Source of the DNA: an uncultured Bacillota bacterium
GTDB taxonomy: Bacteria; Bacillota_I; Bacilli_A; Izemoplasmatales; UBA1188
DNA length: 49,362 nucleotides
Assembly: GCA_937907585.1 (NCBI GenBank)
Contig: CALCVH010000018.1
Coordinates: 1 to 49,362, forward strand
Direction: 5' to 3'
Shown: positions 123-43,586 of the stretch, piece after piece
Numbering within the stretch: position 1 is the first letter of the stretch
Layout of the letters: the number at the start of each line of letters is the position of its first letter
Position numbers and translations under genes: made by a program
The notes under the pieces: model-generated
What the model was told of the DNA's origin: nothing
The model's input: only the letters and a program-made list of their open reading frames with translations
The model's database searches: none

Positions 123-2409
<2,287 letters not shown>

Positions 2410-2411
2410 AA

Positions 2412-20301: not shown

Positions 20302-21375
20302 TTAATCCTCTTTAGCTTCTAATTTTCTCTTTTGTTCCTCTAAAGTTAAAGCTTCAATAATAGGTTCTAATCTTCCTTCCATAACCTTATCAAGCTGTTG
20401 AATAGTAAAACCTATTCTATGATCTGTAACACGGTTTTGTGGATAGTTATAAGTTCTGATCTTTTCACTTCTATCGCCAGTACCTATCATAGATAGACGT
20501 TCAGCACCTTCTTTTTCAGCTTTTTCTCTTAACATTCTATCGTATAGTCTAGATTTTAAAACTTTTAAAGCTTGTGCTTTATTTTCGTGTTGGCTTCTTT
20601 CATCCTGACAAGTTACAATTGTGCCAGTAGGGATGTGAGTTACACGAATAGCGCTACAAGTTGTATTAACTCCTTGTCCTCCAGCTCCTGATGAATGGAA
20701 AATATCAACCCTAACGTCTTCCATATTTAATTCAAAATCAACATCTTCAGCTTCAGGAATAACAAGTACTGTAGCGGTAGATGTATGAATTCTACCCGAT
20801 GATTCAGTTACAGGAATTCTTTGAACTCTATGAACACCTGATTCATATTTTAATTTAGAATATGCACCATTAGATGAAATGATACATTCAATCTGTGAGA
20901 AGCCTCCAGCTTCACACACTTCAGCGTTTGTCACTTGAAGTTTTAAGCCGTTCGCTTCACAGTATCTAGAATACATTCTAAATAAATCTCCAGCGAAGAT
21001 ATTGGCTTCATCTCCTCCTGCAGCACCTCTTATCTGCATAACTACGTTCTTGTCGTCGTTAGGATCTTTAGGAATCAATAGAATCTGAAGTTCTTTTTCA
21101 ACTTCTGGAATTCTTTGTTTAGTTTCTTCTAATTCAAGCGCAGCCATTTCGCTAATCTCAGGATCTGGATCATTAGCCATCTCTTGAAGTTCGCTTAAAG
21201 ATGAATTTAATTTTTTGTATTCTTTATATTTTTCTAGTATTTCACTATATGAAGAGATTTCTTTAGAAAGCTCTGTCATTTTCTTTATATCCTGTTGAAG
21301 TTCTGGTTTAAGAAGCTCTTGAGATATAAATTCAGCTCTTTTTTCAATTTGTTCTAATCTAGCGGTTGTTAACAT
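20302..21375 (-). CDS. prfA: peptide chain release factor 1
   Basis: 357 aa with the RF1-type tripeptide region (RIPVTES), the GGQ motif (SGAGGQGVN) and the RIHTSTATV block. Confidence 0.96.
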   Translation of the reverse strand: MLTTARLEQIEKRAEFISQELLKPELQQDIKKMTELSKEISSYSEILEKYKEYKKLNSSLSELQEMANDPDPEISEMAALELEETKQRIPEVEKELQILLIPKDPNDDKNVVMQIRGAAGGDEANIFAGDLFRMYSRYCEANGLKLQVTNAEVCEAGGFSQIECIISSNGAYSKLKYESGVHRVQRIPVTESSGRIHTSTATVLVIPEAEDVDFELNMEDVRVDIFHSSGAGGQGVNTTCSAIRVTHIPTGTIVTCQDERSQHENKAQALKVLKSRLYDRMLREKAEKEGAERLSMIGTGDRSEKIRTYNYPQNRVTDHRIGFTIQQLDKVMEGRLEPIIEALTLEEQKRKLEAKED

Positions 21376-21376
21376 A

Positions 21377-22717
21377 TTATTCTTCTTCTCTACTTTCGTC
21401 CATGTCTATAAAGTTAGTACATGCACCTTTAAATATTAAATCAAAGCTTCCGGTCATACCACTACGGTTTTTAAGAATATCAATTTGAGCTGTTCCAGGT
21501 TTTTCTGATTTTTCTTTAGTATAATATTCATCACGATAAATAGATAATACTAAGTCGGCATCTTGTTCGATTGAACCTGACTCACGAAGGTCTGACATTA
21601 CTGGAATTGATGGATGTCTTGATTCAACTGTACGCGATAGTTGCGCGAGCGCAAGCACAGGAACATTAAGCTCTTTAGCCATCGCTTTTAATATTCTTGA
21701 TATTTCAGATACTTCTTGAGTACGTGAATCATTCTTGTTTGATGAACTTAATAGCTGTAAGTAGTCAATGACTACAAAATCAAGTTTACCTTCGTTTTTC
21801 TTCTTTCTACAGATGCTTCTGACATCCTGAACAGTAGAAACACCACTATCATCAAACATAATGTTATATCCTCTTAAAGTTTCAACTGCGTAATTTATTC
21901 TATTCCAAGCATTTGAATCACTAAAGTGACCAGTTTTTAATTCTTGTTGAGGGATGTTTGATATCTGTGATAACAAACGAATAACAAGGTCGCTTAAGCC
22001 CATTTCTAAAGAAAAGAAGGCTACGTATGGTCTAGATTTTAAAGACGCGACATTACATGCGAGGTTTAACGCAAAAGCTGTTTTACCCATCGCTGGACGT
22101 GCGGCTAAAATTATCAATTGAGTTCCTTGGAAACCGAGAGTTTTATTATTTAATTGATGATATCCAGTATCAAAACCAATGATTTTTGAAGTGATTTGGG
22201 CGTTCTTTTGAATCTTCTCAATAACATCATCTAGAACATTACTGATACCTACTAAGTCTTGAGCGCCTCTATCCTTAGTTACTTCAAACATTCTTTTTTC
22301 AACGTTGTCAATAAAAGACTTATTGTCTTTAATATCTGTATTTGTTTCTTGAATGATATCATTACATAATTTAACGATTGATCTTTGTGTCGCTTTATCT
22401 CTTACAAGTTCAACATACGCATCAACATTAGATGTTGTAGGAACAGCGTCCATTAATCCAAGTATATATTCTGCGCCACCACAATCATTTAATCTACCTC
22501 TGCTGTCTAAATAAGATATTACCGTAGTAGTATCGATAGGCGTTTTCATTTTAAATAGATCGCACATAGCGTCAAATATATATTGATGTCTTAAATAATA
22601 GAAATCGGAAGTTTTTAGTTTATCAACTAAGCTTTTAATAGTTGATTCATCATAAAATACTGAACCAAGTACGGATTGTTCTGCATCAGTATTCGCAAGA
22701 ACTTTCTGGTTTGGCAT
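21377..22717 (-). CDS. dnaB: replicative DNA helicase
   Basis: 446 aa with the N-terminal EQSVLGS motif, Walker A ARPAMGKTAF, Walker B VVIDYLQL and the RES...IEQDAD block. It follows rplI as in Bacillus and Staphylococcus. Confidence 0.95.
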   Translation of the reverse strand: MPNQKVLANTDAEQSVLGSVFYDESTIKSLVDKLKTSDFYYLRHQYIFDAMCDLFKMKTPIDTTTVISYLDSRGRLNDCGGAEYILGLMDAVPTTSNVDAYVELVRDKATQRSIVKLCNDIIQETNTDIKDNKSFIDNVEKRMFEVTKDRGAQDLVGISNVLDDVIEKIQKNAQITSKIIGFDTGYHQLNNKTLGFQGTQLIILAARPAMGKTAFALNLACNVASLKSRPYVAFFSLEMGLSDLVIRLLSQISNIPQQELKTGHFSDSNAWNRINYAVETLRGYNIMFDDSGVSTVQDVRSICRKKKNEGKLDFVVIDYLQLLSSSNKNDSRTQEVSEISRILKAMAKELNVPVLALAQLSRTVESRHPSIPVMSDLRESGSIEQDADLVLSIYRDEYYTKEKSEKPGTAQIDILKNRSGMTGSFDLIFKGACTNFIDMDESREEE

Positions 22718-22720
22718 ACA

Positions 22721-23176
22721 CTAATCCTCCTTTTCTTCTTTAATATCAATTGTTAAATCAGCTTCTACATTTGTATGTAATTTAACTACACATTTGAATG
22801 TTCCAAGAGAATCCATTTTATCTTTTGGTAAAATGATCTTTCTCTTATCTATTTCAATATTGTGTTGTTTCATTAATTCTTCTGAAATCATTTTATTAGA
22901 TACAGATCCGAAGAATTTGCCAGAATCACCAGTTTTAACTTTCACAACGACAGTTAACTTAGATAATATTTCTTTTAATTTAGTTGCGATTTCTAATTCT
23001 TCTTTCTTTTTCTTTTCTTCAGAAGCCTTTTCTTCATTTAACACTGCCATATTCGCAGCGTTAGCTTCTATCGCATCTTTCTTAGTTAATAAGAAATTGG
23101 CGTATCCTGGAGTAACGTCTATAACGTCTCCTTTCTTTCCTTTTCCTTTAACGTCCTTAACTAAAATAACTTTCAT
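22721..23176 (-). CDS. rplI: 50S ribosomal protein L9 (internal start within the long gdpP ORF)
   Basis: The last 151 codons of the 828-aa ORF read [30 protein letters not shown]...[14 protein letters not shown], a full-length L9 with N-domain, long helix and C-domain. The ATG at 23174-23176 is preceded by AAGGA about 10 nt upstream. Confidence 0.85.
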
Positions 23177-25207
23177 ACTGTTATCATCCTTCTTATCTTT
23201 ATCTTTTAATTCTTTAATCACATTAATTAATTCAGATTTAACTTCTTCAATACTCTTATCTTTGATTTGCGCAGCACCCATATTGAAGTGTCCACCACCA
23301 CCAAAGTATTCCATTAAAACGTGGATATTAACTAGACCGTTACTTCTAGCGCTTATACCAACTATATCTTTATCAATTTTACCGATCGCAAATCCCGCAG
23401 ATATATCATCTACTTCAATTAACGCATTAGCGGTCTTCGCTAATGTTTCACGTGCTTGAATTTCATCGTTAGAATATGAGAAGATTGAGAAGTTTTGTTC
23501 AATAATAGTCGCTTTTTCAATATTCTTAATTCTTTCAGTTTGTTCCTTGCTTGATTCACGTGACATCATCTTAGCTTTAAACGCATCAGCGCCACAATCG
23601 ACTAGTACGCTCGCGCTTTGGAATGTTCTTTCAGAAACGTGTACTGAGAATTTCTGAGTATCTATCAACATACCTATAAACATCGCAGTAGCGGCGAATG
23701 GGCTGAATTCAACAGGTTTAGGTACTAATGTTGCGATTTCAGTAACAATTTCTACCGCACTAGATGCACCATGATCAATGAACTGACTATCAGATTCAAT
23801 ATCTAATCTTTCATTTAGTCTATGGTGGTCAATTATAGTAGTAGTTGCTTTATAGTCGTAAACCTTTAAAGATGGAGATAACTTCTTGCTGTGGTGGTCA
23901 GTGATTATTAATAATCTCTTACCAACAAAGAATTTATCTAAATCATCATCAGTGATAATGATGTTGTGAAGTTTAATATATTCAGTGCTTGATGTTTCGA
24001 TAATCTTTTTAACTGTAGAATCTAATTTTTCTTTATCTAGTAATATCTTTGCTGGAGTATTAATAGATTCACAAATTTCGTATAAACCCATCGCAGAACC
24101 GAGCGCATCCGCATCAGTATCCTTATGTGGCATGATTACTACAGATGAAGAATTTTGAATATAGTTAATTAATTTAGCTGCGTATAGTTTAGTAGAGATA
24201 CGGCTTATTCTTTCATAAGATGGAGTATTTCCACCATAAGCGCTCTTAGTTTCACCATTATAGATAATCGCTTGGTTTCCACCTCTTTCTGATGCGAACT
24301 CTAATGCTTTTTCAGCGAAGAAACCTAGAGTTCTATAATCCATTGATCCTGTACCAATACCAATAGATAATGAAATACCAATATTTTCAGATTTAGATAT
24401 TCTATCAGCTTCTTTAAGAATTGAGAAATCATCTTCAATCATCTTATTTAAGTCGATAGCCTTAACAACAAACGCTTGTTTGTTAGTTGAATCTGATAAT
24501 ACGAATGAATCGAATTTCTTACTCCATTCTTTAATCGCATTATAGTATTTTCCAAGCATCTCTGTCTTTTCTTTTAAATCGAAACCGATTAGAGATTCAT
24601 CTAGGTTATCGATTGATATGATAGCGATTGATGGCTTAGATTCTTCAAAAGTGATAAGCGCATTTGTTTCTTCAGTGATATCAAACATATATACTGCTTT
24701 ATCTTGAGCGTTGATACTGCATCTATATGTTTTGTCATAGATTTTAATATCGATGGTCTTATTCTTTCTAATAATCGCAGTGAATAATTCTTTTGATAAA
24801 CTCTTAACATCTTTTCCAAGTAAATCTGTTTGGAATATCTTCTTCGCAAATTCATTTGAGAATACGATATTATAGTGTCTATTGAATATGAATAAACCAA
24901 TTGGTAAATTGCTTGTGATATTTTCGTTGTTCCTAATTAAAGATTGATTTAAATCTTTTTCTATATTTAATTCAGATTGAAGTTTCTTGTTTTCTTTTAA
25001 ACTATGATTAGAGAAAATAATAGCTCCAAATAGGAATGTGATAATTAATCCAAACAAAAATACCGGTCCATAAAAGGTCAAGTAAATAATAGTCGCATCG
25101 CTTATATATTGTTGGATAACTTCTTTTAAATAAAATACATACCCAAGTATGTAACCTATTTGAAATATCAAGAAGATCAGCATTAATATGAACGTTCTTT
25201 TTTTCAT
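22721..25207 (-). CDS. gdpP: GdpP-type cyclic-di-AMP phosphodiesterase (2 TM, PAS-like, degenerate GGDEF, DHH, DHHA1) reading in frame into L9 with no stop codon
   Basis: 828-aa uninterrupted ORF with two N-terminal TM helices, a degenerate GGDEF region (ERGGNQAI), DHH motifs ([11 protein letters not shown]; ITDHH) and DHHA1 GGGGH. The GdpP part ends around ...[13 protein letters not shown] and runs straight into the Met of L9. A GGAGG RBS precedes the 25207 ATG. Confidence 0.85.
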
Positions 25208-25240
25208 ATTGCGAATTCCTCCTTGTATAATATAATATCA

Positions 25241-25275
25241 AAAAAATAAATAAAAAACAATCCATAAGGATTGTT
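25241..25275 (-). terminator. intrinsic terminator after the lipase-like lipoprotein gene
   Basis: The stem aacaatcc/ggattgtt (25256-25263 and 25268-25275) has loop ataa and a long T-rich run on the minus strand. Confidence 0.6.
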
Positions 25276-25393
25276 ATAGTATAAATATCTCAATTTTTTA
25301 GGTACGTTATATAACCAATTTGTAGAAAATTTTTAATAATGTATTATTAATTCACAACTTATTATATCACATTTTTAACTCATTAAACTATTT

Positions 25394-27172
25394 TTAATCA
25401 GCCATGATATAGTTACTAACTAAAATGTAACTACATAAAGAATCGTGATGGAATCCAAGTCTTGAAATTGAATCTAGGTTTTTAGTTGAGAAATATCTAA
25501 CTAAAACAGTTGATACTAATCCATTCGCAGGTCCAAATATTAACTGTGATAAATCATCACATGTGCTTCTTAATTTTTCATCATCATATTTAAAACCGTC
25601 TAATTCAATTATGGGTTTAACCATATTATATATTTTACCTTCTCCTTTTAAATTAAAGAATTTAGATAAACTATTTACTTCTTTTTGGAATGTATTCATG
25701 ATTGATACAATGGTTTCATCTTTTAATGAAAAGAATAATTCAATAAAATACATTGATGATGTTTGATAGTTTTCATAGAATTCTTCTTTAGTAGATAAGG
25801 TTTTATAACTACTTTCTGCTTTCTTTGTTAGAGTTGATATTATATATTCAGTTCTTTCAATTTCATTTGTGTAGTTTGAACTATAAACATCGAATTCAGG
25901 AATAGATAAATTAGAATTGAACATTTTAATGTAATAATCAACATTACTATCATAGATACTACAGTCTATTCCAGCTCTTTCATTTCCATAAGATTCTGGA
26001 AGTATTTGTGTAACTATATCAGCGTTATTTACCATATTGAATATATACGGGTATGCATTATCATCTATAACTGAACCTCTAGGAGCTTCAAAAGTATATA
26101 CATAAATATTGTCTTTATCTATAAAATCATATTCACTTATTAACATCTTCCCAACGATATTCGCAACTGCGCCAGCTCTTGAATAACCAGTTACTAATAC
26201 CTTAACTTTTTTATCCTTATAATAAGCATCAATATAATTTTTTAATGAATCAATAACTTCAATAGATCTATCATTAAACGCTTTATGATATGGTTCATTA
26301 CCGATATTGAAATTATCTATAAATTCCATTCCATAATGGAATCCATTAATTGATATATTTATCATTTCAAAATCATCTATTGTTCTATGAGAAAAACAAT
26401 ATGCGACCTCTTCTATTTTATCAGTATCATAAGTATCTGAATAATAAGGATTATCAAAACCAGATTTTGTATTAAATACACCAATAGTAGATTTATTTCT
26501 ATTTGTAATACTGCTTCCAAGAGCGTAAAGACATAATTCTTTATTAAAAACTGTGTTAGGTTTTAAGAAGAAGCTATCTCTATATGGAATATCAACCATT
26601 TCTTTGCCTTCTATAAAGATACTTCCTATATCAACTTTAATGGATGTTAATTTATCATTATTCCATTTAGAATTAATCACATAATCTTTATAGATTGGGG
26701 TGCTGAAATCAAAATCCCAGCCATCAAAATATAATGTCTCATTATTTATAGTATATTCAACAGGGAATTTAGGTGGATTAATAACTCTAATTCCGTTTGG
26801 CACAACAACCTTATAATATTCTTTATTATCTCCATCCAAAAACGTTACTATGTGCTTATCCCACATAGCGTATAGCTTATAATCACCATCAATAGTTGTT
26901 TCATTATTCACCATTTGAGCGTCTTTATTTAGTTCTTTAAACCATCCAATAAACTTTCTTCCTATCTTAGTTGGTGTAGGTAATTCAACATTATCCCCTT
27001 TATTAACATAGATGATATTTTCATCTAAAGATCCACCATTCGCATCTAGTTCAATAGTATACTGGTCTATTTTAGTAGTACTAATAGATGTTGTATCTTT
27101 ACTACAAGAAACTAAGAATACTAAAATAGTAATAATGAATACAATGTTTATTATTGGTAAGTATTTTTTCAT
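25394..27172 (-). CDS. lipoprotein with two InlB-B/Flg_new-type repeats and a class-3-lipase-like alpha/beta hydrolase domain
   Basis: The signal peptide has the lipobox LVSC. Two repeats of about 70 aa fit the Listeria-Bacteroides repeat pattern (LDANGGSL...GxxxxLPxPTKxGxxFxGWF). A nucleophile elbow follows (VTGYSRAGAVA, GxSxG-like). Confidence 0.8.
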   Translation of the reverse strand: MKKYLPIINIVFIITILVFLVSCSKDTTSISTTKIDQYTIELDANGGSLDENIIYVNKGDNVELPTPTKIGRKFIGWFKELNKDAQMVNNETTIDGDYKLYAMWDKHIVTFLDGDNKEYYKVVVPNGIRVINPPKFPVEYTINNETLYFDGWDFDFSTPIYKDYVINSKWNNDKLTSIKVDIGSIFIEGKEMVDIPYRDSFFLKPNTVFNKELCLYALGSSITNRNKSTIGVFNTKSGFDNPYYSDTYDTDKIEEVAYCFSHRTIDDFEMINISINGFHYGMEFIDNFNIGNEPYHKAFNDRSIEVIDSLKNYIDAYYKDKKVKVLVTGYSRAGAVANIVGKMLISEYDFIDKDNIYVYTFEAPRGSVIDDNAYPYIFNMVNNADIVTQILPESYGNERAGIDCSIYDSNVDYYIKMFNSNLSIPEFDVYSSNYTNEIERTEYIISTLTKKAESSYKTLSTKEEFYENYQTSSMYFIELFFSLKDETIVSIMNTFQKEVNSLSKFFNLKGEGKIYNMVKPIIELDGFKYDDEKLRSTCDDLSQLIFGPANGLVSTVLVRYFSTKNLDSISRLGFHHDSLCSYILVSNYIMAD

Positions 27173-27206
27173 ATATTCATATCCTAAATTTAATATATTT
27201 ATGATT

Positions 27207-27785
27207 CTACTTTAAAACACTTCTTATTACTCTTGATACTTCTAATGCACACTTTTTATATCCTTCTATAGTTAAATGAAGAGAATCGCTACATTTATAA
27301 TGTCTTTTCTCTTTATCGTATAGAAGAGAATATAAATCATCAACCAACACATTTTCTTCTTTCATTAGCTTTAATGCAGCTTCATTATATTCTTTTACCC
27401 ACGCATCTTTATAATTAATCATTTCAAAACCTTCAGTTTCTACATCTGTATCATATATTGGTGTAGTGGTAGCGAATATAGGAATAGCCCCAGTAGATCT
27501 AATTAGGTTTATTAATCTTTTTAGATTATGGATATAGTCTTCAATTGGAACTTCTCTTTCTCTATTTGGTCCTTCATTATTCATATCCCAATATCCGTTA
27601 TTAAAATGAACTACATCAAATGGACCATGTAAATTGTTTTGTATATTAAACATCCATATTGTATATGAAGAGAATCTTCCATTATCATCTGGGTCATATA
27701 CTACTTCATATTCTTTTAATTCCTCTTTAACAAAGTCATCGTATCCCATTCTAATAGAATCGCCTAATAGTAATATCTTTTTCAT
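27207..27785 (-). CDS. SGNH/GDSL-family hydrolase (cytoplasmic esterase)
   Basis: 192 aa with block I LLLGDSI, block III FNNGYWD and block V SDSLHLT. No signal peptide. It lies 34 nt upstream of the lipoprotein gene on the same strand. Confidence 0.8.
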   Translation of the reverse strand: MKKILLLGDSIRMGYDDFVKEELKEYEVVYDPDDNGRFSSYTIWMFNIQNNLHGPFDVVHFNNGYWDMNNEGPNREREVPIEDYIHNLKRLINLIRSTGAIPIFATTTPIYDTDVETEGFEMINYKDAWVKEYNEAALKLMKEENVLVDDLYSLLYDKEKRHYKCSDSLHLTIEGYKKCALEVSRVIRSVLK

Positions 27786-27870
27786 CCTTTAATCCACCAT
27801 TTGTTATTATTAATTTTATTATATCATTCAAGGAATTATTATAAAATAATAATTTTGAAAACAATAAAAA

Positions 27871-27946
27871 TTGAAAAGCGTAAAAATAATATTAGTTTTT
27901 TGTTTGAAAAGCGTAAAAAATAGCGTATAATATAGATTGAAAAGCG
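27871..27946 (+). repeat. three phased direct repeats of TTGAAAAGCG (two extended to 16 nt)
   Basis: ttgaaaagcgtaaaaa occurs at 27871-27886 and again at 27904-27919, and ttgaaaagcg at 27937-27946. Start-to-start spacing is exactly 33 bp both times. Confidence 0.85.
27904..27931 (+). promoter_or_regulatory. near-consensus sigma-A promoter for the AAA/DUF4143 gene
   Basis: TTGAAA (27904-27909), a 16-nt spacer, then TATAAT (27926-27931). A GGAGG RBS sits at 27946-27950 and the ATG at 27957. Confidence 0.55.
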
Positions 27947-27956
27947 GAGGAAAGTT

Positions 27957-29270
27957 ATGTATAGAAAGATTTCTAAGTATATAGAAGAGTATTTGACTAG
28001 CGATGAAAAAAAGATATTATGTATCGATGGCGCAAGACAAGTTGGGAAATCATATATAATTAGAGAACTCGCAAAAAAACATTTTGAAAACTACATTGAA
28101 CTAAATATGGCTAATGACAAAGTTGGTGATAGATTGTTCGCTAATGTAAATACAATTGAAAAATTTTATATTGAAGCTAGTGTAGTCGGTGGTGATAAAT
28201 TAAAGGACAGAGATAATACTATTATTTTTATAGACGAGATTCAAGAATATCCTCAATTATTAACATTATTAAAGCCTTTAAGAGAAGACAACAGATATAA
28301 ATATATATGTAGTGGATCTGAATTAGGAATAGCTTTATCCAACACAACTTTAACTCCTATGGGCTCAATAATTAAAAAGAAAATGTATCCAATGGATTTT
28401 GAGGAATTTTTAATTGCGAACTCTGTTGGCGAACTAGTGATTGAACATATGAAAAAATGCTTTAACACTGGAGAATCACTAGATGAATCATTACATAATA
28501 AAATTTTGTATTTATTCAAAACGTATTTATATGTTGGCGGAATGCCGGATGCTGTAAAGAGTTATGTTGAAACTAAGAATATTGTTAAAATTAGAGAAAT
28601 TCAAAAAGATATAATAGATTTATACTTAGAAGACGCAACTAAATATGATAAAGAACATAAACTAGTTATAGAAAGAATTTATAGGATGATTCCATCTAAC
28701 ATAGAAAACAAGGTTAAACGAATACAATATAAAGATATTGAAAAAATCGATGATGTTAGATTTACTAGATATTCTAATGAATTTGAATACTTAATATCTT
28801 CAGGGATTGCGTTAGATACTAAAGCAGTTAGTGAACCTAAATTCCCTTTAGTTCAATCTAGTAGTAAAAACTTAATCAAGTTATATATTAACGATGTTGG
28901 CTTATTAACAAGCATTTTATATAAAAATAATATAAGTTCAGTGCTAGATGACGCTACAGGAGTGAATCTTGGCGCTGTATATGAAACAGTAGTTGCTCAA
29001 GAATTAAAATGTCATGAACACGATTTGTATTACTATGATAGAAGAAAAGTTGGCGAAGTGGATTATTTAATTGATGATTATGATTCATTGAATGTTCTTC
29101 CAATAGAAATTAAATCTGGAAAAGATTATAAGAATTATAGAGCGTTACCTAAATTACTGTTAGATCAAAATTACAAAATGTCAAAGGGATATGTTTTTAG
29201 TAATGAAAGAAAAGTGACAGTAGATGGTAAGATAAAATATTTTCCAATTTATTTTGTAATGTTCTTATAG
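27957..29270 (+). CDS. AAA-family ATPase with a DUF4143-type C-terminal domain (PD-(D/E)xK-like)
   Basis: 437 aa with Walker A GARQVGKS, Walker B IIFIDEIQ, and a C-terminal GEVDYLI...PIEIKSGK resembling a D...ExK nuclease-fold motif. It is monocistronic with its own promoter, a GGAGG RBS and a terminator. Confidence 0.8.
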   Translation: MYRKISKYIEEYLTSDEKKILCIDGARQVGKSYIIRELAKKHFENYIELNMANDKVGDRLFANVNTIEKFYIEASVVGGDKLKDRDNTIIFIDEIQEYPQLLTLLKPLREDNRYKYICSGSELGIALSNTTLTPMGSIIKKKMYPMDFEEFLIANSVGELVIEHMKKCFNTGESLDESLHNKILYLFKTYLYVGGMPDAVKSYVETKNIVKIREIQKDIIDLYLEDATKYDKEHKLVIERIYRMIPSNIENKVKRIQYKDIEKIDDVRFTRYSNEFEYLISSGIALDTKAVSEPKFPLVQSSSKNLIKLYINDVGLLTSILYKNNISSVLDDATGVNLGAVYETVVAQELKCHEHDLYYYDRRKVGEVDYLIDDYDSLNVLPIEIKSGKDYKNYRALPKLLLDQNYKMSKGYVFSNERKVTVDGKIKYFPIYFVMFL

Positions 29271-29283
29271 AAATAATGATTCT

Positions 29284-29319
29284 AATAATAACGGGCACCG
29301 TTTGGTGTCCGTTATTATT
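29284..29319. terminator. bidirectional intrinsic terminator between the convergent AAA-ATPase and XRE-TPR genes
   Basis: The 16-nt arms aataataacgggcacc / ggtgtccgttattatt have one G-T position and loop gttt, with A/T runs on both sides. The right arm covers the XRE gene stop codon. Confidence 0.75.
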
Positions 29320-30382
29320 TTATTGTATTAAGTAATTTGTTCTTCTTTTCTAGCGCTTCAATTACTGTTGATTCGTCATCGCTCATTTTCCACTCTTCTT
29401 TGTATAAAGCTAATAAACGATCATATGTTTCGATCTCTTTTTTAGTATCACCAATGATATCATAAATATCTATAATACTTAATAATTCATCGCTATAACT
29501 TGGAATTCTTGTTCTTTTATTAAAAGATTCTTCATAAAGATTTATCGCTTTTACATATTCACCTTTTTTAGTGTAATATTGAGCCATCTCAAACATAAAT
29601 GCCGATTCATCTTTGTAAGTTTTTGCTAGATTATTCATTATTGCATCGGCTTCTTTTTCATTGAATTTAGCTAGTTCTATTTCAGCACGATAAGCTTCAG
29701 TAATAATTACCATATTTGGTTTTAGTTCTTTTTCTTTATCTTTATATAATTCTTTTAATTTATTAAGATATAACGTTGCTTCATCTGTACGATGGTCAGC
29801 GATAAGATTCCAAATGATATGATGGTAAGGTTCTATAACATTAGGATTGTTATTTATTAATTCTTTATAGAATTTAATAATACCATTATGATTACTAATA
29901 TCCCAGTCCCAACAAGATCCTGCTTCTGCTTTATTAACCATCCATTGAGCGTTTTCTCTTTCGCCTGGATTAAGTTTAATTGCCTCTCTTCCATATTTAC
30001 TGATCTTTCTAGAATCGCTTTCTAATCTATGAGTATATAGGTAAGCCAGTAAATAGTTTATTTTTTGAACTTGATTTTTTTCATTTAATTGTGATTTTAA
30101 GAATGTTTCTATATCTTCAAAATCACGTGATGATAATTCTAACTCAATATCTAGTTTATTTTCTATTCTATCTAATTTTTGTTCTATTGATAAATCGAAT
30201 AAATCGTCAATTGTAACTCCAAAAGTTTCAGATAAGATAGGCAATAAACTGATATCCGGTGTTGTAACATCATTTTCCCATTTTGATACTGCTTGAGGCG
30301 ATACTCCAATTTTGTTTGCAAGTTCATCTTGAGTATATCCACATTTTGTTCTTAGTTGTTTAATCTTGTTTGCTAGCTGCAT
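29315..30382 (-). CDS. XRE-family HTH transcriptional regulator with a C-terminal TPR-like domain
   Basis: The HTH_3 N-terminus reads IKQLRTKCGYTQDELANKIGVSPQAVSKWEND, followed by about 280 aa of helical TPR-like repeats (e.g. MAQYYTKKGEYVKAINLYEESF). I place the start at the ATG at 30382, preceded by AAAGGAG. The 33-codon upstream extension in the ORF track has no RBS. Confidence 0.85.
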   Translation of the reverse strand: MQLANKIKQLRTKCGYTQDELANKIGVSPQAVSKWENDVTTPDISLLPILSETFGVTIDDLFDLSIEQKLDRIENKLDIELELSSRDFEDIETFLKSQLNEKNQVQKINYLLAYLYTHRLESDSRKISKYGREAIKLNPGERENAQWMVNKAEAGSCWDWDISNHNGIIKFYKELINNNPNVIEPYHHIIWNLIADHRTDEATLYLNKLKELYKDKEKELKPNMVIITEAYRAEIELAKFNEKEADAIMNNLAKTYKDESAFMFEMAQYYTKKGEYVKAINLYEESFNKRTRIPSYSDELLSIIDIYDIIGDTKKEIETYDRLLALYKEEWKMSDDESTVIEALEKKNKLLNTIK

Positions 30383-30404
30383 AATAATCTCCTTTTCTAG
30401 CTCA

Positions 30405-30433
30405 ATTTTAACAAATAGATAAATAATAAACAA
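30405..30433 (-). promoter_or_regulatory. putative promoter of the XRE-TPR regulator gene
   Basis: The minus strand reads TTGTTT (30428-30433), a 17-nt spacer, then TAAAAT (30405-30410), about 20 nt upstream of the AAAGGAG RBS. Confidence 0.35.
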
Positions 30434-30478
30434 TAACTTAAAAAGATACTTAAATAACCAATTAGTTGAGTTATTGTT
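30429..30478. promoter_or_regulatory. 10-bp perfect inverted repeat (candidate operator) in the divergent XRE / small-membrane-protein region
   Basis: aacaataact (30429-30438) and agttattgtt (30469-30478) are separated by 30 nt. The left arm overlaps the putative -35 of the regulator gene. Confidence 0.4.
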
Positions 30479-30707
30479 CAATAAAACATACTATAGATTA
30501 TGCTCTATAACACCAATTCTTATATTATCATTATGCAACTTAAATATAATATTTCAAATATTAATATTACAACTCTATTTTTACTATATTTATACCAAAA
30601 AATAATAGATACCTTAAATTCCTAAACATAATTTCATAACAAATAAAAAATAATTATTTAATATTTTTATAATTATTATATAATTAGATATGAAGGAGGA
30701 CTCTTTT

Positions 30708-30932
30708 ATGAAATGGTTTAACTCACAATCTCGTTTAGTTCAAATCTTATTATTATTAATCCCTGGAGTAAACTGGGTTACTGAAGTAATCGTAAGAGTA
30801 ACTGGCGCTATTCAAAAACCTACTTTAACAAATATCTTAGGATTAGTTCTAGGTGTTTTATTTGGTTTTGTTTTTGGTTGGGTAGATTTAGTTTGGGTAT
30901 TATTATTCAAACACTTAATTTTCTGCAAATAG
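30708..30932 (+). CDS. small hypothetical membrane protein (two TM helices)
   Basis: 74 aa beginning MKWFNSQSRLVQILLLLIPGVNWV, with a second helix LGLVLGVLFGFVFGWVDLVWVLLF. An AGGAGG RBS lies 8 nt upstream of the ATG at 30708; the 30690 ATG in the ORF track lies just upstream of that RBS (AGGAGG, 30693-30698). A strong terminator follows. Confidence 0.6.
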   Translation: MKWFNSQSRLVQILLLLIPGVNWVTEVIVRVTGAIQKPTLTNILGLVLGVLFGFVFGWVDLVWVLLFKHLIFCK

Positions 30933-30942
30933 TTAATTGAAT

Positions 30943-30974
30943 AAAGGGCATCCCGAGAGGATGCCCTTTATTTT
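30943..30974 (+). terminator. intrinsic terminator after the small membrane protein gene
   Basis: The 11-bp GC-containing stem aaagggcatcc/ggatgcccttt has loop cgaga and is followed by atttta. Confidence 0.8.
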
Positions 30975-31035
30975 AAACCAACGGAAAATTAGGTTGGTAT
31001 ATTATTTAATTTATCTATAACTATTCGTTATTTTT

Positions 31036-31090
31036 AACAACAATGTTGCAAATGCAACATAAAAAATGTAGCAAATGCATCATTGTTGTT
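31036..31090. repeat. 55-bp imperfect palindrome containing a nested perfect 16-bp palindrome
   Basis: The arms aacaacaatgttgcaaatgcaacat and atgtagcaaatgcatcattgttgtt match at 21 of 25 positions around loop aaaaa. The outer 10 bp are perfect. The nested palindrome tgttgcaAAtgcaaca is at 31044-31059, and gcaaatgca occurs twice. Confidence 0.8.
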
Positions 31091-31213
31091 TTATGACTTA
31101 ATTATATATTTTATTAAGAGGAATCATAAAAGTTTCTGTAATAGTTAATACAATATTATTACTTAATGAATTTTTATAAGAGTTTAAAATGTTGCTATAA
31201 ATAATTAGGAGCT

Positions 31214-31250
31214 GTTAAGAAACTTAGACTTTCTTAACATCCCCTTTTTA
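31214..31250. terminator. hairpin next to the SASA esterase stop (terminator-like; orientation ambiguous)
   Basis: The 9-bp stem gttaagaaa/tttcttaac has loop cttagac. A T-run (ccccttttta) follows on the + strand, and only weak U-richness follows on the - strand. Confidence 0.4.
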
Positions 31251-31257
31251 TTTGAAT

Positions 31258-32169
31258 TTATAATTTTTTATTAATAGCAATTTTTCCAAATAACTTTCCA
31301 AGTAATATCTCACTTTCACTATCAAAGTGTGCAATATCAGGTCCATCTATTGGTTCTTGATCATAGTGAAGTCCGACATCAATTGTGTCAAAATAATAAT
31401 TATAATCATCTTCATTGCTAAACTTTATTTTCGCATTATTTATCTTTTTATACATTGTCCAATAAGGAGAATCACTAATACCAGCATCAATAAAATCAAT
31501 CTCTTTTTGATATGAAGATAAATCATGTCTTAAAAATCCCACAAATTGTTTAGTATTTTTATAATACCTATTAGATAAATTAAAATTAGAATCACTTTCT
31601 CCCTGCATCCAACAGATAGCATCAATTTGGATATCATAATTTTTGCTGATTAAATAATCTAGAGATGTCTTAGTAAAATTGATGGCAGCTTCATATAATT
31701 CTCCACGCTTATATTTACCATTCATCCATTGATAATCAAGGACAGTTCCACCCCATGAATATTTTATGATAAAACATTTCAATCCCTTTTCTTTATAAGT
31801 TAAACCAATTCCTACTTCTGGACCAAAATGTTCTTTTGTAGCACCGTTTCCTAAAGAACATATAACAAATTCATTATTTGATGAATTAGACCCGTTTTCA
31901 CAACAATAATTAATATAAATGTTATCTATTCCATTATTTGTTGATGCATATGTTTCATTATCTTTTTCTTGTAAATATTTAACACTTGAACAACCAGTTG
32001 CATTAGATTGTCCGTATAATAATATCACTCTTACTTTCTCACCATTACCATCACTTAAATTATCATTAATAGAAAAACTAGTAACAGCACCTAATAATTC
32101 TTTCTTTTTACAAGATGATAATGATATTGAACTCAATAATATAATTATAATAAGTAATATTTTCTTCAT
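31258..32169 (-). CDS. SASA-family carbohydrate O-acetylesterase lipoprotein (sialate O-acetylesterase-like)
   Basis: The signal peptide has the lipobox LSSC. Also present are the GQSN block (LLYGQSNATG) and the WMQGESD block characteristic of the SASA/DUF303 esterase family. Confidence 0.8.
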   Translation of the reverse strand: MKKILLIIIILLSSISLSSCKKKELLGAVTSFSINDNLSDGNGEKVRVILLYGQSNATGCSSVKYLQEKDNETYASTNNGIDNIYINYCCENGSNSSNNEFVICSLGNGATKEHFGPEVGIGLTYKEKGLKCFIIKYSWGGTVLDYQWMNGKYKRGELYEAAINFTKTSLDYLISKNYDIQIDAICWMQGESDSNFNLSNRYYKNTKQFVGFLRHDLSSYQKEIDFIDAGISDSPYWTMYKKINNAKIKFSNEDDYNYYFDTIDVGLHYDQEPIDGPDIAHFDSESEILLGKLFGKIAINKKL

Positions 32170-32231
32170 ATAAAATATTCTCCTATATATTTAAATATTA
32201 TCATAATACGTCCACATTCTAATTATCTTTA

Positions 32232-32394
32232 TTATTTTTTATCTTCATATACTTGATATACAAGACGATGTTGAAGATTGATTCTTCTTGAATATACAAA
32301 CGAGTTTTTCATATGAAGGTGGATTTTGAAATGGATTTTCTTCTATTAACTCAAGTTATGCAACAACTTTTTAAAGTAAGTTTGGTTTTTGCTT
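32232..32394 (-). pseudogene. decayed YoeB/Txe-family toxin remnant (frameshifted and 5'-truncated)
   Basis: One minus-strand frame reads ...YSRRINLQHRLVYQVYEDKK*, the YoeB SRRIxxxHRLVY core. A second frame just upstream reads LIEENPFQNPPSYEKLV, matching the NPF...G.P E.L segment. A third frame reads FKKLLHNLS**. No antitoxin ORF is present and the remnant abuts the uxaC stop. Confidence 0.6.
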
Positions 32395-33777
32395 TTATAC
32401 AATAATTTTAAAATAATTAATAGCGTTATAGTAGGAAATATTTTTTATTACCTCTCCAACAAGTTTTATATTGTTGGTTATTTCGTTATTCTCTACCAAA
32501 TTTCCTAAATAATCACATAATATTCTTCTAAAATAATGATGTCTTGAATATGATAAGAACGATCTACTATCAGTTAACATTCCTATAAACGAATCAATGT
32601 GTCCTAATGATGTTAAATCATCTAAATGTTTTTTGATACCATTTTTGTGATCTAAGAACCACCAGCTTGCACCATATTGTATTTTTCCCTTAGCACTGCT
32701 ATCTTGAAAACAACCTAGTAAAGTCAGCATTTCGGAGTTCATTTTAGGGTTCAAATTAAACAAAATAATTTTAGGCAATAGGTTTTCGTTGTTCAATTTA
32801 TCAAATAAACAGCTTAGTTCTTTAATGCTGTTTTCGCTTGAAATGCTATCAAATCCAGTGTCTAATCCAAGTTTATTTAACATTTTTGTATTGTTATTGC
32901 GCATAGCACCTATATGAAGTTCAGTAACAATATTATATTTGGCATATAGTTTTAGCAAATAGTATGTTAAATATCCTTTGAAGATTTTTACTTCGTTAAT
33001 AGATAATTCCTTGTTGTTTCTTCTATCAACGAACACTTTATTTGCTTCTTTTTTAGTTGGTACATTATATACAGCTTCAAGAGCAATATCAGCAGCAACG
33101 CACCCCTTACTAATAAATGATTTTAGCCTATTTTCTATTGCGTTTTCAAGTTCATCTATATCTTTTATGTTCCCTAATTTATCAACATAACTATTGTAGT
33201 TTGAGGCATCTATATTCATTATCTTATCAGCTCTAAAAGCAGGAAATACTCTAAACTTATAGTTTTTCTCTTTAATACAATCAAAAACTTCTAGATTATC
33301 AAAGATTTCATTAGTAGTAAATAGATGTGTAACCTTAGATTCTTCAATTAGTTTAACAGGAGTGATCTCATTTTCTTTTATATATTTATTACATTCATCC
33401 CAAATTTTTGGCGCATTTTCTTCATTAATTTCTAGATTACAATTAAAATAATCTCTTAATTCAATTTGTGACCAATGATACAAAGGATTTCCAAATGCTG
33501 TTGATAACACCTTGCAATAAACTAAAAACTTTTCTTTGTTTGATTTGCTACCAGTAATATATTCTTCATCAATTCCATAATTACGCATTAAACGCCATTT
33601 GTAATGATCGCCTTTAAGCCATATTTCATATATATCTTCAAATTGTTTATTTTCTAGAATTTGATATTCTGAGAGATGACAGTGATAATCAAAGATAGGC
33701 ATATCTTTAGCATAATTAAAATATAACTCATTTGCAGTTTTATTAGAAAGCAAAAAATTATCATTAATGTATGACAT
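32395..33777 (-). CDS. uxaC: glucuronate isomerase (uronate isomerase)
   Basis: 460 aa. The N-terminus NDNFLLSNKTANELYFNYAKDMPIFDYHCHL closely parallels the E. coli UxaC N-terminus (FLL...A..LYH.YAKD.PIFDYHCHL). Confidence 0.93.
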   Translation of the reverse strand: MSYINDNFLLSNKTANELYFNYAKDMPIFDYHCHLSEYQILENKQFEDIYEIWLKGDHYKWRLMRNYGIDEEYITGSKSNKEKFLVYCKVLSTAFGNPLYHWSQIELRDYFNCNLEINEENAPKIWDECNKYIKENEITPVKLIEESKVTHLFTTNEIFDNLEVFDCIKEKNYKFRVFPAFRADKIMNIDASNYNSYVDKLGNIKDIDELENAIENRLKSFISKGCVAADIALEAVYNVPTKKEANKVFVDRRNNKELSINEVKIFKGYLTYYLLKLYAKYNIVTELHIGAMRNNNTKMLNKLGLDTGFDSISSENSIKELSCLFDKLNNENLLPKIILFNLNPKMNSEMLTLLGCFQDSSAKGKIQYGASWWFLDHKNGIKKHLDDLTSLGHIDSFIGMLTDSRSFLSYSRHHYFRRILCDYLGNLVENNEITNNIKLVGEVIKNISYYNAINYFKIIV

Positions 33778-33789
33778 AGTGACCTCTTA

Positions 33790-34407
33790 TTAATTATTTA
33801 TTTCCTTTACTATTTTTCTTGCGCATAAAGATAATTGAGTTATTTCTTCTTTATTTCCTTTTACTAGCCAAGAACCTCCACAAGCAATTATCTTTTTAAA
33901 ACTAAGAAATTCTTTTAAATTATCATTATTTACTCCGCCTGTAGGCATAAATGATACTTGTGGAAATGCAGAACTTAAAGCTTTAATTGTTTTTAATCCG
34001 CCAAATTCTCCTGCAGGAAAGAATTTAACCAAATTAATGTTCTTGCTTAATGCATTCATTATTTCTGTTGGAGTTAATACACCAGGAATATACGGTATCT
34101 CACTTTTTTTGCATTCTTCATATACTTCATCGCTAAAACCAGGAGATACAATAAACTTCGCTCCATAATTAATTGCTTCTATACATTGTTTTTTATCTAT
34201 TATAGTGCCTGCGCCAATAAGCATATTAGGATATTCCAATACAGCTTTTTTTAAACACGCAGGTGCACATTCTGTTCTATAACATATTTCAGCAATAGGA
34301 ACATCTCCATCTATAAGCGCTTGTAGTATTGAATCAACTTCTTTTATGTTATTAAATACAACTACTGGAACTATTCTTATTTCTTTTATTTTTGATATAG
34401 CGTCCAT
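33790..34407 (-). CDS. eda: 2-dehydro-3-deoxy-phosphogluconate (KDPG) aldolase
   Basis: 205 aa with IVPVV, the GAGT block and the Schiff-base Lys region VKFFPA typical of KDPG/KHG aldolases. Confidence 0.88.
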   Translation of the reverse strand: MDAISKIKEIRIVPVVVFNNIKEVDSILQALIDGDVPIAEICYRTECAPACLKKAVLEYPNMLIGAGTIIDKKQCIEAINYGAKFIVSPGFSDEVYEECKKSEIPYIPGVLTPTEIMNALSKNINLVKFFPAGEFGGLKTIKALSSAFPQVSFMPTGGVNNDNLKEFLSFKKIIACGGSWLVKGNKEEITQLSLCARKIVKEINN

Positions 34408-34412
34408 AATAG

Positions 34413-35438
34413 TTACCTCTGAACTCTTCCAGATGCATTACCTTTTACTAAAGATAACACTTCTTCTTCAGTTACTAAATTGAAATCACCAGGAATAGTA
34501 TGTTTAAGCGCGCTTGATGCGACAGCGAATTCTAACGCATCTTTTTGATTACCATTATATTTGATTAATCCATGAATTAATCCAGCAGCGAATGAATCTC
34601 CTCCACCCACTCTATCAACTATAGGCATAATATCATAATGTTTTGACTCATAGAATTCTTTTCCATTATATATTAATGCTTTCCAGCCATTATGAGATGC
34701 GCTATATGATTCTCTTAAAGATGATACTACATATTTAAAGTTATATGTTTCTTTCATTTCTTTAAAGATTTCATAGTACCCACTAGCGCTTGTATCACCT
34801 TTTTCTATATCAGCCTTAGGAGTGAAACCTAGACACAGTTTAGCATCTTCTTCATTTCCAATGCACACATCAACATATTTCATTAATGGTTTCATTATTG
34901 ATTGAGCTTTTTCAGTAGTCCATAATTTCTTTCTAAAGTTTAAATCACATGAAATAATTACATTATGTTTTTTAGCACATTCACAAGCTTTTTTAATTAA
35001 CTCTGCAGCTTTATCAGATATTGCAGGTGTAATACCTGTCCAGTGGAACCAAAAGCATCCATCAAATATCTTATCAAAATCAAAATCACTAGTATCTGCT
35101 AAAGATATCGCAGAATCTTTCCTATCATATATTACCTTTGATGGCCTCATTGATGAACCACTTTCAAGAAAATATATACCCAGTCTATCTCCGCCTCTTG
35201 ATATATATTCAGTATTTACGCCATATCTTCTTAATGCGTTTAAAGCAGATTGACCTATTTCGTTTTTAGGTAGCTTAGTAACATAATATACATCATTACC
35301 ATAATTAGCTAATGATATAGCGACATTAGCTTCTCCTCCACCATAACAAACATCAAACGAATCTGATTGTATAAATCTTTGATTATCAGGTGTAGATAAT
35401 CTTAACATTATCTCACCCATAGTTACTATTTTTGGCAT
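34413..35438 (-). CDS. kdgK: 2-dehydro-3-deoxygluconokinase
   Basis: 341 aa PfkB kinase with N-terminal VTMGEIMLRL, the GGGEANVA di-Gly region and C-terminal GGGDSFAAGLIHG, lying between uxaA and eda. Confidence 0.88.
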   Translation of the reverse strand: MPKIVTMGEIMLRLSTPDNQRFIQSDSFDVCYGGGEANVAISLANYGNDVYYVTKLPKNEIGQSALNALRRYGVNTEYISRGGDRLGIYFLESGSSMRPSKVIYDRKDSAISLADTSDFDFDKIFDGCFWFHWTGITPAISDKAAELIKKACECAKKHNVIISCDLNFRKKLWTTEKAQSIMKPLMKYVDVCIGNEEDAKLCLGFTPKADIEKGDTSASGYYEIFKEMKETYNFKYVVSSLRESYSASHNGWKALIYNGKEFYESKHYDIMPIVDRVGGGDSFAAGLIHGLIKYNGNQKDALEFAVASSALKHTIPGDFNLVTEEEVLSLVKGNASGRVQR

Positions 35439-35449
35439 TTGGGCACCTC

Positions 35450-36889
35450 CTAAAGTGTAACGCCATCTTTGAAGATGGCTATATCATATAATTTATTAAT
35501 TTCATTTTTAGTTTTATATTCACCATTTATAGTTTTTATAACTAAGTCTAATAATTCACTAAATGCACTATCGAATGTTTTATTATCGATAATATCTCCA
35601 GCATTATAATCAATCCATCTTTCTTTTTTATTAAATAACGTAGAATTAGATGAAATCTTAACAGTTGGAACAATAGAACCAAATGGTGTTCCTCTTCCTG
35701 TAGTAAATAAAATCAGTTGAGCATCAGAACAAACAAGATTTGTTGTAGATACAATATCGTTTCCAGGACCATTTAAAAGATTCAAGCCTTTGTTTACTAC
35801 TTTTTGGTTTTCTTTTAATACATCAACTATTTCGCTATATCCACCTTTTTGAATACAACCAAGTGATTTATCTTCTAGTGTAGTAATTCCGCCCTCTTTG
35901 TTTCCTGGAGATGGGTTCTCATAACATACTTGATTATGATTTTTATAATATGTTTTAAAATTGTTAATCAAATCAACCGTTTTATTATAGATAGATTCAT
36001 CCTTACACCTATTCATAAGGAGTTGTTCAGCACCGAACATCTCAGGAACTTCTGTAAGAAGTGATGATGCGTTATTTTTAACAAAGTAATCAGATATTAT
36101 TCCTACAAGTGGGTTAGCGGTAATACCTGATAATCCATCAGAACCACCACACTTTAATCCTAAAGTAATAGATGAAAGTGGCACTTCTGCTCTTTTATCT
36201 TTAACCATCTCTTGATAAATCTCATTTAATAATTCTAATGAGTCTTCAATCTCGTCTTTAGAGTTTTGAAGAATGATAGATTTAATTCTTTTTTTATCAT
36301 AATCTTTTAAAGATTTTAAGAATGGTTCAAGTTGATTGTTTTCACAACCTAGTGATACTATCAAGACACCTCCAAAGTTAGGGTGCTTTGCGATGCTTAA
36401 TAGCGTATCTTTAGTAAACAACATGTCATCACCAATCTGTGAACAGCCATATGGATGAGTTAACGCAATAACATCATCTATACCATCAAGATTGTTTCTT
36501 TTAATAAACTCATCTTTAATTCTATTAACAGTACTATTGATACAGCCAACAAGAGGTAGTATTAATAGGTTATTTCTAATGCCGTATTTGTTGTTTGATC
36601 GTTTATAGACCATTACTTTCTTGTTATCGAAAGAGAATTTATTCTCTATTACTGCTTTTTCATAGTGATATACAGGTTCTTCATCTAATAAGGTCTTAAT
36701 ATTATGAGTATGAACGTGCTCGTTCTTTTTAATATCTTTAGTTGCGACTCCTATTGGATAACCATATTTATAAATCTTTTCACCTGCTTTAATATCTATT
36801 GATGCTATCTTATGTCCGAAAGGAACGATATCGTTTGTTAAGGCTATTAAAACATTATCTTTTTCATTTAATTTTATATACTTATTCAT
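35450..36889 (-). CDS. uxaA: altronate dehydratase
   Basis: The N-terminal SAF domain reads MNKYIKLNEKDNVLIAL (compare E. coli MQYIKIHALDNVAVAL), followed by the large UxaA/GarD C-terminal domain. The ATG at 36889 has a GAGGGG RBS and overlaps uxaB by 8 nt. The ORF-track start at 36904 is a TTG. Confidence 0.92.
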   Translation of the reverse strand: MNKYIKLNEKDNVLIALTNDIVPFGHKIASIDIKAGEKIYKYGYPIGVATKDIKKNEHVHTHNIKTLLDEEPVYHYEKAVIENKFSFDNKKVMVYKRSNNKYGIRNNLLILPLVGCINSTVNRIKDEFIKRNNLDGIDDVIALTHPYGCSQIGDDMLFTKDTLLSIAKHPNFGGVLIVSLGCENNQLEPFLKSLKDYDKKRIKSIILQNSKDEIEDSLELLNEIYQEMVKDKRAEVPLSSITLGLKCGGSDGLSGITANPLVGIISDYFVKNNASSLLTEVPEMFGAEQLLMNRCKDESIYNKTVDLINNFKTYYKNHNQVCYENPSPGNKEGGITTLEDKSLGCIQKGGYSEIVDVLKENQKVVNKGLNLLNGPGNDIVSTTNLVCSDAQLILFTTGRGTPFGSIVPTVKISSNSTLFNKKERWIDYNAGDIIDNKTFDSAFSELLDLVIKTINGEYKTKNEINKLYDIAIFKDGVTL

Positions 36890-43585: not shown

Positions 43586-43586
43586 A

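Follow-up and report, generated by a model that had tools for sequence, protein, structure and literature searches.

Can one reading frame without an internal stop codon supply both a membrane-anchored signalling enzyme and a free ribosomal protein? The question is raised by a gdpP-rplI locus on a stretch of 49,362 nucleotides from an uncultured Bacillota bacterium (NCBI GenBank assembly GCA_937907585.1, contig CALCVH010000018.1, positions 1 to 49,362; GTDB lineage Bacteria; Bacillota_I; Bacilli_A; Izemoplasmatales; UBA1188), hereafter the window. On its minus strand, the gene of GdpP, a predicted phosphodiesterase of the second messenger cyclic di-AMP (c-di-AMP), runs into rplI, the gene of ribosomal protein bL9 (L9), within a single open reading frame (ORF). 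A first-pass annotation of this DNA had left three options, namely that only a membrane-anchored GdpP-L9 fusion is made, that the fusion and a free L9 are both made, or that a stop codon was lost through a sequencing error or a recent mutation, and it had regarded a physical link between c-di-AMP turnover and the ribosome, if real, as new biology. As set out below, the architecture is an already catalogued one, and the comparison of fused loci makes it likely, in our view, that the one ORF has two products, GdpP-L9 and free L9.

Results

The ORF spans 828 codons, from an ATG at 25207-25205 to a TAG at 22723-22721 (22721..25207; like all features of the locus given below, on the minus strand), and neither the ORF listing nor the sequence contains an in-frame stop between its GdpP and bL9 parts. 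An open frame of this length at a GC content of ∼31% far exceeds chance. Residues 1-677 make up a complete GdpP and residues 678-828 a complete bL9 of 151 amino acids (aa), and the six Pfam domains of the protein all exceed their gathering thresholds. The N-terminus consists of two hydrophobic helices (residues ∼1-66, 25010..25207; helices 2-31 and 37-100 in an AlphaFold2 model), a putative anchor that we infer to insert into the membrane. It is followed by PAS_GdpP (PF21370; residues 93-177, 24677..24931; E 6.6e-13), the degenerate GGDEF domain GGDEF_GdpP (PF24898; residues 197-320, 24248..24619; E 4.1e-20), DHH (PF01368; residues 356-513, 23669..24142) and DHHA1 (PF02272; residues 586-665, 23213..23452). 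Residues 99-666 align to the near full-length GdpP structure 9n0l (E 2e-58). Across 14 aligned fused homologues, D365, D367, D437 and D460-H461-H462 of DHH (placed by alignment to PDB entries 9n0l and 5xsi), D516 and the GGGH motif of DHHA1 (G637-G638-G639-H640) are invariant, as are many L9 residues; since all catalytic motifs are kept, the GdpP part is predicted to be an active c-di-AMP phosphodiesterase. The bL9 coding part (22721..23176; 151 codons plus stop) holds Ribosomal_L9_N (PF01281; residues 678-722, 23042-23176) and Ribosomal_L9_C (PF03948; residues 741-823, 22739-22987). Over residues 678-825, it scores 120.7 bits with the L9 equivalog model TIGR00158 (cutoff 58.6) and aligns with positions 1-148 of the L9 chains in ribosome structures, and a hidden Markov model (HMM) made from stand-alone L9s gives it 160 bits.

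The two parts are joined by a short variable linker (residues 666-677, 23177..23212), and the junction reads ...gat aag aag gat gat aac agt ATG aaa gtt att.... Here, an AAGGA resembling a Shine-Dalgarno (SD) sequence (23187..23191) lies 10 nt 5' of the internal ATG (23174..23176), which is the L9 start codon and encodes M678, a residue invariant in the alignment of fused homologues, and a TGATAA (23186-23181) falls out of frame within the codons GAT GAT AAC. In the AlphaFold2 model, whose mean predicted local distance difference test score (pLDDT) is 79.8, the last DHHA1 helix covers residues 653-671, residues 671-675 are disordered (pLDDT <50) and the first L9 strand occupies residues 678-682, which leaves a flexible linker of ∼6 residues. 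The gdpP start itself is preceded by the SD AAGGAGGA (25217..25224; duplex with the anti-SD of -11.2 kcal/mol). Downstream, the replicative helicase gene dnaB (21377..22717; Pfam DnaB/DnaB_C) begins 3 nt past the fusion stop, with no stand-alone rplI between the two. The dnaB SD, again AAGGAGGA (22725..22732; -12.5 kcal/mol), lies inside the last L9 codons (gaa aag gag gat), and the layout of the gdpP/L9 junction, with the SD inside the upstream gene, thereby recurs at the L9/dnaB junction. What the first-pass annotation had read from the sequence, i.e. the stop-free run of GdpP into a complete 151-aa L9 over 828 codons, the gene order gdpP-rplI-dnaB and the junction with its out-of-frame TGATAA and an AAGGA ∼10 nt upstream, is thus borne out by the ORF, the sequence, Pfam and TIGR00158.

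The proteins most closely related to the fused one stem from metagenome-assembled genomes (MAGs) and metagenome assemblies. One of them, 84% identical to the window protein (P0002/L086), has the same stop-free junction, gataaaagggatgataacagcATG, with nucleotide differences, which argues that the junction is no error of this assembly; aligning related junctions had been proposed as a check, and this relative lacks a stop between GdpP and L9. A protein identical to the window product is present in a public collection, and a large protein collection yielded 18 fused proteins that carry all six domains, measure 810-828 aa except for one fragment of 578 aa and range from 100% down to 31% in identity to the window protein; unfused GdpP proteins (∼655-690 aa) rank only below them there. 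A filter-free HMMER search against 1.84 billion representatives at 50% identity placed at least 41 full-length fused representatives and 5 junction-spanning fragments among the best 150 matches. At the level of genomes, 105 non-duplicate loci carry a single fused ORF, including Candidatus (Ca.) Phytoplasma mali, Ca. Izemoplasma and complete genomes. On this comparative record, we regard the fusion as genuine and ancient.

Nor is the architecture new. The window protein matches NF011110/PRK14538, 'putative bifunctional signaling protein/50S ribosomal protein L9', from end to end (residues 7-827 against positions 20-837 of 838; E 4.9e-152) and is a divergent member of this known family, its score of 507.9 bits lying below the equivalog cutoff of 707, by which the NCBI rule would not name it automatically. 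Table S3 of Grosjean et al. (2014; PMC4014445) flags RPLI as "fusion" in Acholeplasma laidlawii (ACL_0196), Ca. P. mali (ATP_00177), P. australiense (PA0149) and onion yellows phytoplasma (PAM012), with a single RPLI entry for each of the four, and has plain rplI in the Spiroplasma and Hominis-group rows consulted; the main text of that article is silent on the fusion. Since the family is curated and the table carries these flags, the novelty claimed in the first-pass annotation was overstated. Literature searches that combined GdpP and L9, DHH, rplI and phytoplasma, c-di-AMP and Acholeplasma, or A. laidlawii and L9, or that used the locus tags, turned up no functional study of the fusion, and the flags in Table S3 were its sole mention. 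To our knowledge, neither the dichotomy of start signals nor the selection on a redundant fused domain, both reported below, appears to have been described in the literature searched.

The genomic loci were gathered from a set with one genome per GTDB species by two scans that used alignments as queries, in place of a scan with a single protein (3 loci only), and that gave 160 loci, in each of which a script traced the gdpP frame to its stop. To score potential ribosome-binding sites, the anti-SD CACCUCCUUUCU was paired with positions -20 to -4 of the L9 codon. The fused loci fall into two classes, which provide a natural control. Class A comprises 90 of the 105, including the window, and keeps a start codon at the L9 position (ATG in 84, GTG in 6) with a median SD of -10.3 kcal/mol. 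Its fused L9 domains score 119-167 bits on the stand-alone-L9 HMM, the same range as true stand-alone copies, and none of the 90 loci has an adjacent stand-alone rplI, a count in which a copy could be missed at the 4 loci with <500 nt downstream. Class B, in contrast, comprises 15 loci (L091-L100, L102, L116, L129, L131, L132) with non-start codons at this position (AAG, GCA, GCG, ACT, TTA, ATT, AAA, CTG, TCT), no SD (median energy -2.3 kcal/mol) and fused L9-like domains of 40-101 bits. In 14 of these 15, a stand-alone rplI sits between the fusion and dnaB (in L092, for example, the fusion at 1434-3947 is followed by rplI at 3957-4403), and the scores of these copies lie at 121-167 bits, with SDs of -10.2 kcal/mol in the median. 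The association between class and adjacent stand-alone rplI gives a Fisher p of 1.6e-16, uncorrected for phylogeny, and class B consists of at least four separate groups with class A nearest neighbours.

The same picture emerged at the protein level, where the column of L9 Met1 in 64 fused proteins holds M in 51, V in 7, K in 2, and L, S, A and T in one each; in four of five exceptions examined, the fusion is separated from dnaB by a complete stand-alone rplI (147-151 aa where complete) that has a strong SD. Start signals persist at loci where the fused gene is the sole rplI and disappear in the presence of a free copy. Read most simply, these sequences point to a need for free L9, which class A would meet from the internal start.

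Features of the internal start itself agree with this role. Among the first 22 fused ORFs, the L9 codon is ATG in 19 and GTG in 3, the SD energy at this site ranks at a median 0.75th percentile of the in-frame positions in its own ORF (range 0-10.9%), and 17 of the 22 have no other internal start codon with an equally strong SD. Further, few stretches of the ORF are less structured than the 50 nt that surround the L9 start (median percentile 0.89, n=87). In the window, the internal SD of -6.4 kcal/mol falls at the 3.1st percentile within the ORF and among the strongest 4.5% when compared with random positions of the window; the median of 44 window gene starts is similar (-7.15 kcal/mol), which makes this SD ordinary for the genome. 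A promoter and terminator scan of 21300-25500 returned promoter-like sites at the frequency expected from shuffled sequence and provides no evidence either way on an internal rplI promoter.

If free L9 is supplied from within or from next to the fusion, is there any use for the L9 module on the long form? Although no part of the fused protein varies more in the alignments than the linker, a stop codon has reappeared there in none of the 90 class A loci. As a ribosomal protein, the fused L9-like domain of class B is redundant, and it has nonetheless stayed open over ∼150 codons. Ratios of nonsynonymous to synonymous substitution rates (dN/dS; pairwise NG86, with dS of 0.5-1.7 and hence partly saturated) were 0.29 for this domain, 0.13 for the GdpP catalytic part and 0.18 for the stand-alone rplI in six related class B genomes, and 0.07, 0.07 and 0.14, respectively, in three others; a third group (L095, L102, L129) is too divergent for informative values. 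The fused L9-like domain of two-copy genomes is therefore under purifying selection, and selection probably maintains some role of the L9 module on the long form. The class B domain drifts from the L9 profile (N-domain from 65 to 26 bits, C-domain from 96 to 55 bits) and the GYAxNFL-type motif of its N-domain is replaced, which suggests that the domain may by now do something other than bind in the manner of canonical L9.

Fused loci belong to Acholeplasmatales, Ca. Phytoplasma, Izemoplasma/Izimaplasma, Mariniplasma, Anaeroplasma and numerous "Bacilli/Mollicutes" MAGs from gut or rumen, as opposed to the unfused state in Lachnospiraceae, lactobacilli, Romboutsia, Erysipelotrichaceae, Bacillaceae, Ca. 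Bathyoplasma and one Izemoplasmatales MAG. In the unfused loci retrieved, rplI is nearly always in the gdpP frame, 0-138 nt past the gdpP stop, a frequency that overestimates the one among Bacillota, as tblastn ranking favours in-frame pairs. In ∼20 unfused loci, the gdpP stop directly abuts the rplI ATG (among them L020, L023, L025, L028, L030, L032, L038, L043, L053, L054, L059, L064, L066 and L067). Moreover, the rplI SD lies within the last gdpP codons in both states (compare unfused Romboutsia, cttAAGGAGGAagaaTAG ATG, with fused L004, tacAAGGAGGAactaaca ATG), and its position is the same in the fused and unfused junctions inspected, leaving the stop codon as the essential difference. With frame and spacing already in place, one substitution in the stop codon would suffice to fuse the genes. 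In a rough neighbour-joining tree of the DHH-DHHA1 region, the fused sequences stand apart from unfused Bacillota; in the tree of 111 sequences, rooting did not separate the outgroups, and it gives no firm count of independent origins. Fused-gene contigs were also met in MAGs labelled Alistipes finegoldii, Prevotella sp., Acidiphilium sp., Bacteroidales and Gammaproteobacteria (L018, L119, L132, L149, L151, L152, L162, P0014); these Mollicutes-type sequences are probably mis-binned contigs or come from mislabelled bins.

As for its surroundings, the window is ordinary chromosomal DNA of ∼31% GC from an Acholeplasma-like Bacillota relative. Beyond dnaB follow prfA, prmC and topA (Pfam), and the window also contains ffh and ftsY, an F-type ATP synthase operon, upp, rpiB, tsaC, ftsK, a signal peptidase, a 50S-binding-type GTPase (MMR_HSR1) and rnhB. 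Pfam scans of 40 window ORFs revealed no diadenylate cyclase, and the 49 kb hold no tRNA gene and no Rfam family above gathering score, hence no c-di-AMP riboswitch and no rRNA. The gene directly upstream of gdpP (25394-27172) has a 592-aa product that begins like a lipoprotein (...LVSCSKD) and contains a Listeria-Bacteroides repeat as well as a class 3 lipase domain; the gene stands in the place that rpsF-ssb-rpsR take upstream of the fusion in L090 and L093. The region 27000-33000 has the lowest GC content of the window (0.26-0.27 versus ∼0.31) and may be an acquired island; it includes an AAA_14/DUF4143 ATPase gene (27957-29270), the only plus-strand gene in that part of the window, an HTH_3-TPR regulator gene (29315-30481) and a gap of ∼0.8 kb (30482-31257) without an ORF of at least 110 aa. 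A hexuronate catabolism cluster at 32395-38321 and 42743-45055 (UxaC, KDPG aldolase, PfkB kinase, altronate dehydratase, a mannitol-dehydrogenase-family oxidoreductase and an MFS transporter), near which another PfkB kinase and two tandem SIS_2-domain proteins are encoded, is consistent with a gut or rumen fermenter of sugar acids.

Discussion

Together, the comparisons suggest the following course of events. Loss of a stop codon in an ancestor of the Acholeplasma, phytoplasma, Izemoplasma and gut 'Bacilli-Mollicutes' lineages would have joined gdpP and rplI. Since then, ribosomes starting at the gdpP ATG would meet no stop before the end of L9 and produce a membrane-anchored GdpP-L9 of ∼95 kDa, whereas those starting at the internal ATG (23176-23174 in the window), guided by the internal SD (23191-23187), would produce a free 17-kDa bL9 that serves as a normal ribosomal protein. 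Where a new downstream rplI arose, the fused copy would have lost its start signals and diverged, staying in frame under purifying selection. On the long form, the L9 module might dock GdpP on ribosomes or rRNA, or it might be structural. That full-length GdpP-L9 docks via L9 on ribosomes or 23S rRNA, competing with or replacing free L9, and in this way couples c-di-AMP hydrolysis at the membrane to translation, is a conjecture that we put forward only tentatively and consider rather doubtful. Purifying selection on the fused L9-like domain of genomes with a free rplI lends it some indirect support. Selection for such a coupling, if real, would account for a stop codon that was never regained and for an L9-like domain that was kept despite a separate rplI.

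Several observations weigh against this scheme. The internal SDs of the window (-6.4 kcal/mol) and of its closest relative (-5.7 kcal/mol) are the weakest in the family, and their scoring assumes an anti-SD sequence, as the window is devoid of rRNA. Only one L9-coding region is present in the 49-kb window, with a second rplI possible elsewhere in the genome. One class B locus, L093 (3001-5460; GCA_040777085.1, JBEVUJ010323286.1), has neither start nor SD at the L9 position and no rplI within 3 kb, dnaB being directly next; either its rplI lies elsewhere in the genome or the organism does without free L9. The correlation statistics include no phylogenetic correction, and the neighbour-joining trees are rough. 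Proteomic or Ribo-seq data for the long form or for free L9 were not found for any organism. Besides, a flexible linker of ∼6 residues makes L9-mediated docking of the long form on the ribosome sterically uncertain.

How do the alternatives fare on the same evidence? The lack of a stop codon means that the long form must be translated, and one may ask whether it is the sole product, a 95-kDa GdpP-L9 whose L9 works while attached or after release by proteolysis, with the internal ATG unused. The merely moderate SD of the window (-6.4 kcal/mol) would fit such an obligate fusion, as would the ribosome binding of engineered L9 fusions (PDB 4w2e, 5j8b). However, start codon and SD are kept at 90 of 90 single-copy loci and lost only where a free rplI is present. 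A ribosome needs roughly one copy of L9, whereas GdpP is a membrane signalling enzyme, and only a very short linker joins the two. We thus hold the fusion-only option of the first-pass annotation to be improbable, and unlikely for the window in particular, and see its second option, with fusion and free L9 both made, as the best supported one, as start and SD persist wherever the fused gene is the only rplI. Conversely, only free L9 and the GdpP enzyme might be functional and the L9 tail a harmless by-product of the lost stop. The stop codon is indeed essentially the sole difference between fused and unfused junctions, the literature searches found no functional data, and the tail may be tolerable given that L9 is dispensable in several bacteria and lost in some Mollicutes, as reported in Grosjean et al. 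(2014; PMC4014445). Yet, a neutral tail is difficult to reconcile with a hypervariable linker that has not regained a stop at 90 loci in AT-rich genomes, or with the fused L9-like domain of two-copy genomes, open over ∼150 codons at dN/dS of 0.07-0.29, and we deem this explanation unlikely.

Two further explanations have next to nothing in their favour. An artefact or very recent stop loss confined to this genome, the third option of the first-pass annotation, is conceivable a priori and no more; the identical public protein, the 84% relative with its shared junction, and fusion at 105 loci, complete genomes among them, conserved down to ∼30% identity, exclude it for practical purposes. A programmed frameshift in the linker, with termination at the TGATAA (23186-23181) to yield GdpP without L9, was considered because this motif lies in another frame just 5' of the L9 ATG, in L086 as well. 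It was likewise rejected with near certainty: no slippery heptamer precedes the motif, which is lineage-specific, is explained by the D-D-N codons GAT GAT AAC and is absent from all other fused junctions inspected.

The two-product arrangement, which we favour, has relatives of several kinds. The named members of NF011110/PRK14538 (ACL_0196; PAM012, ATP_00177, PA0149) share with the window the order transmembrane helices-PAS-GGDEF-DHH-DHHA1-L9_N-L9_C and a position upstream of dnaB and prfA, and in their genomes the fused gene is the only rplI. The window protein differs from the named Acholeplasma, phytoplasma and Izemoplasma members in representing a separate uncultured lineage at ∼30-38% identity. 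The unfused gdpP-rplI-dnaB(dnaC) operon of Bacillus, Lactobacillus, Romboutsia and Lachnospiraceae has the gene order, the GdpP domains and the rplI SD in the 3' end of gdpP in common with the window, but keeps the stop codon between gdpP and rplI that the window is without. In-frame nested genes that give two proteins by internal initiation are familiar from E. coli, where infB (the IF2 forms), clpB and cheA are each translated into long and short forms. As in the window, an internal start with its own SD lies in frame within a longer ORF, and a long and a short C-terminal product are expected; however, their short products are truncated isoforms, whereas the one of the window would be a complete, independently evolved ribosomal protein, and its two products are deduced from sequence.

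Covalent attachment to L9 can bring a protein to the ribosome by way of the L9 N-domain. Engineered fusions of this domain with EF4 (PDB 4w2e, 5j8b) resemble the window protein in that a partner is covalently linked to L9, yet the partner there is C-terminal to the L9 N-domain, whereas in the window a membrane enzyme of 677 residues sits on the L9 N-terminus with a linker of ∼6 residues, and ribosome binding would here be hypothetical.

In summary, the fusion is ordinary as an annotation and should not be called a frameshift, a pseudogene or a new architecture. Gene callers and censuses of ribosomal proteins are affected by it, since rplI lies hidden in an 'L9' of 810-830 aa. Beyond annotation, the comparative pattern argues that one ORF supplies a ribosomal protein together with a signalling enzyme carrying an L9 tail, and that the tail is itself selected. 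Should this tail dock on ribosomes, c-di-AMP turnover would be tied physically and directly to translation in wall-less Bacillota, among them the plant-pathogenic phytoplasmas; otherwise, the family would still offer a clean natural case of fusion by stop loss, followed by duplication and subfunctionalisation.

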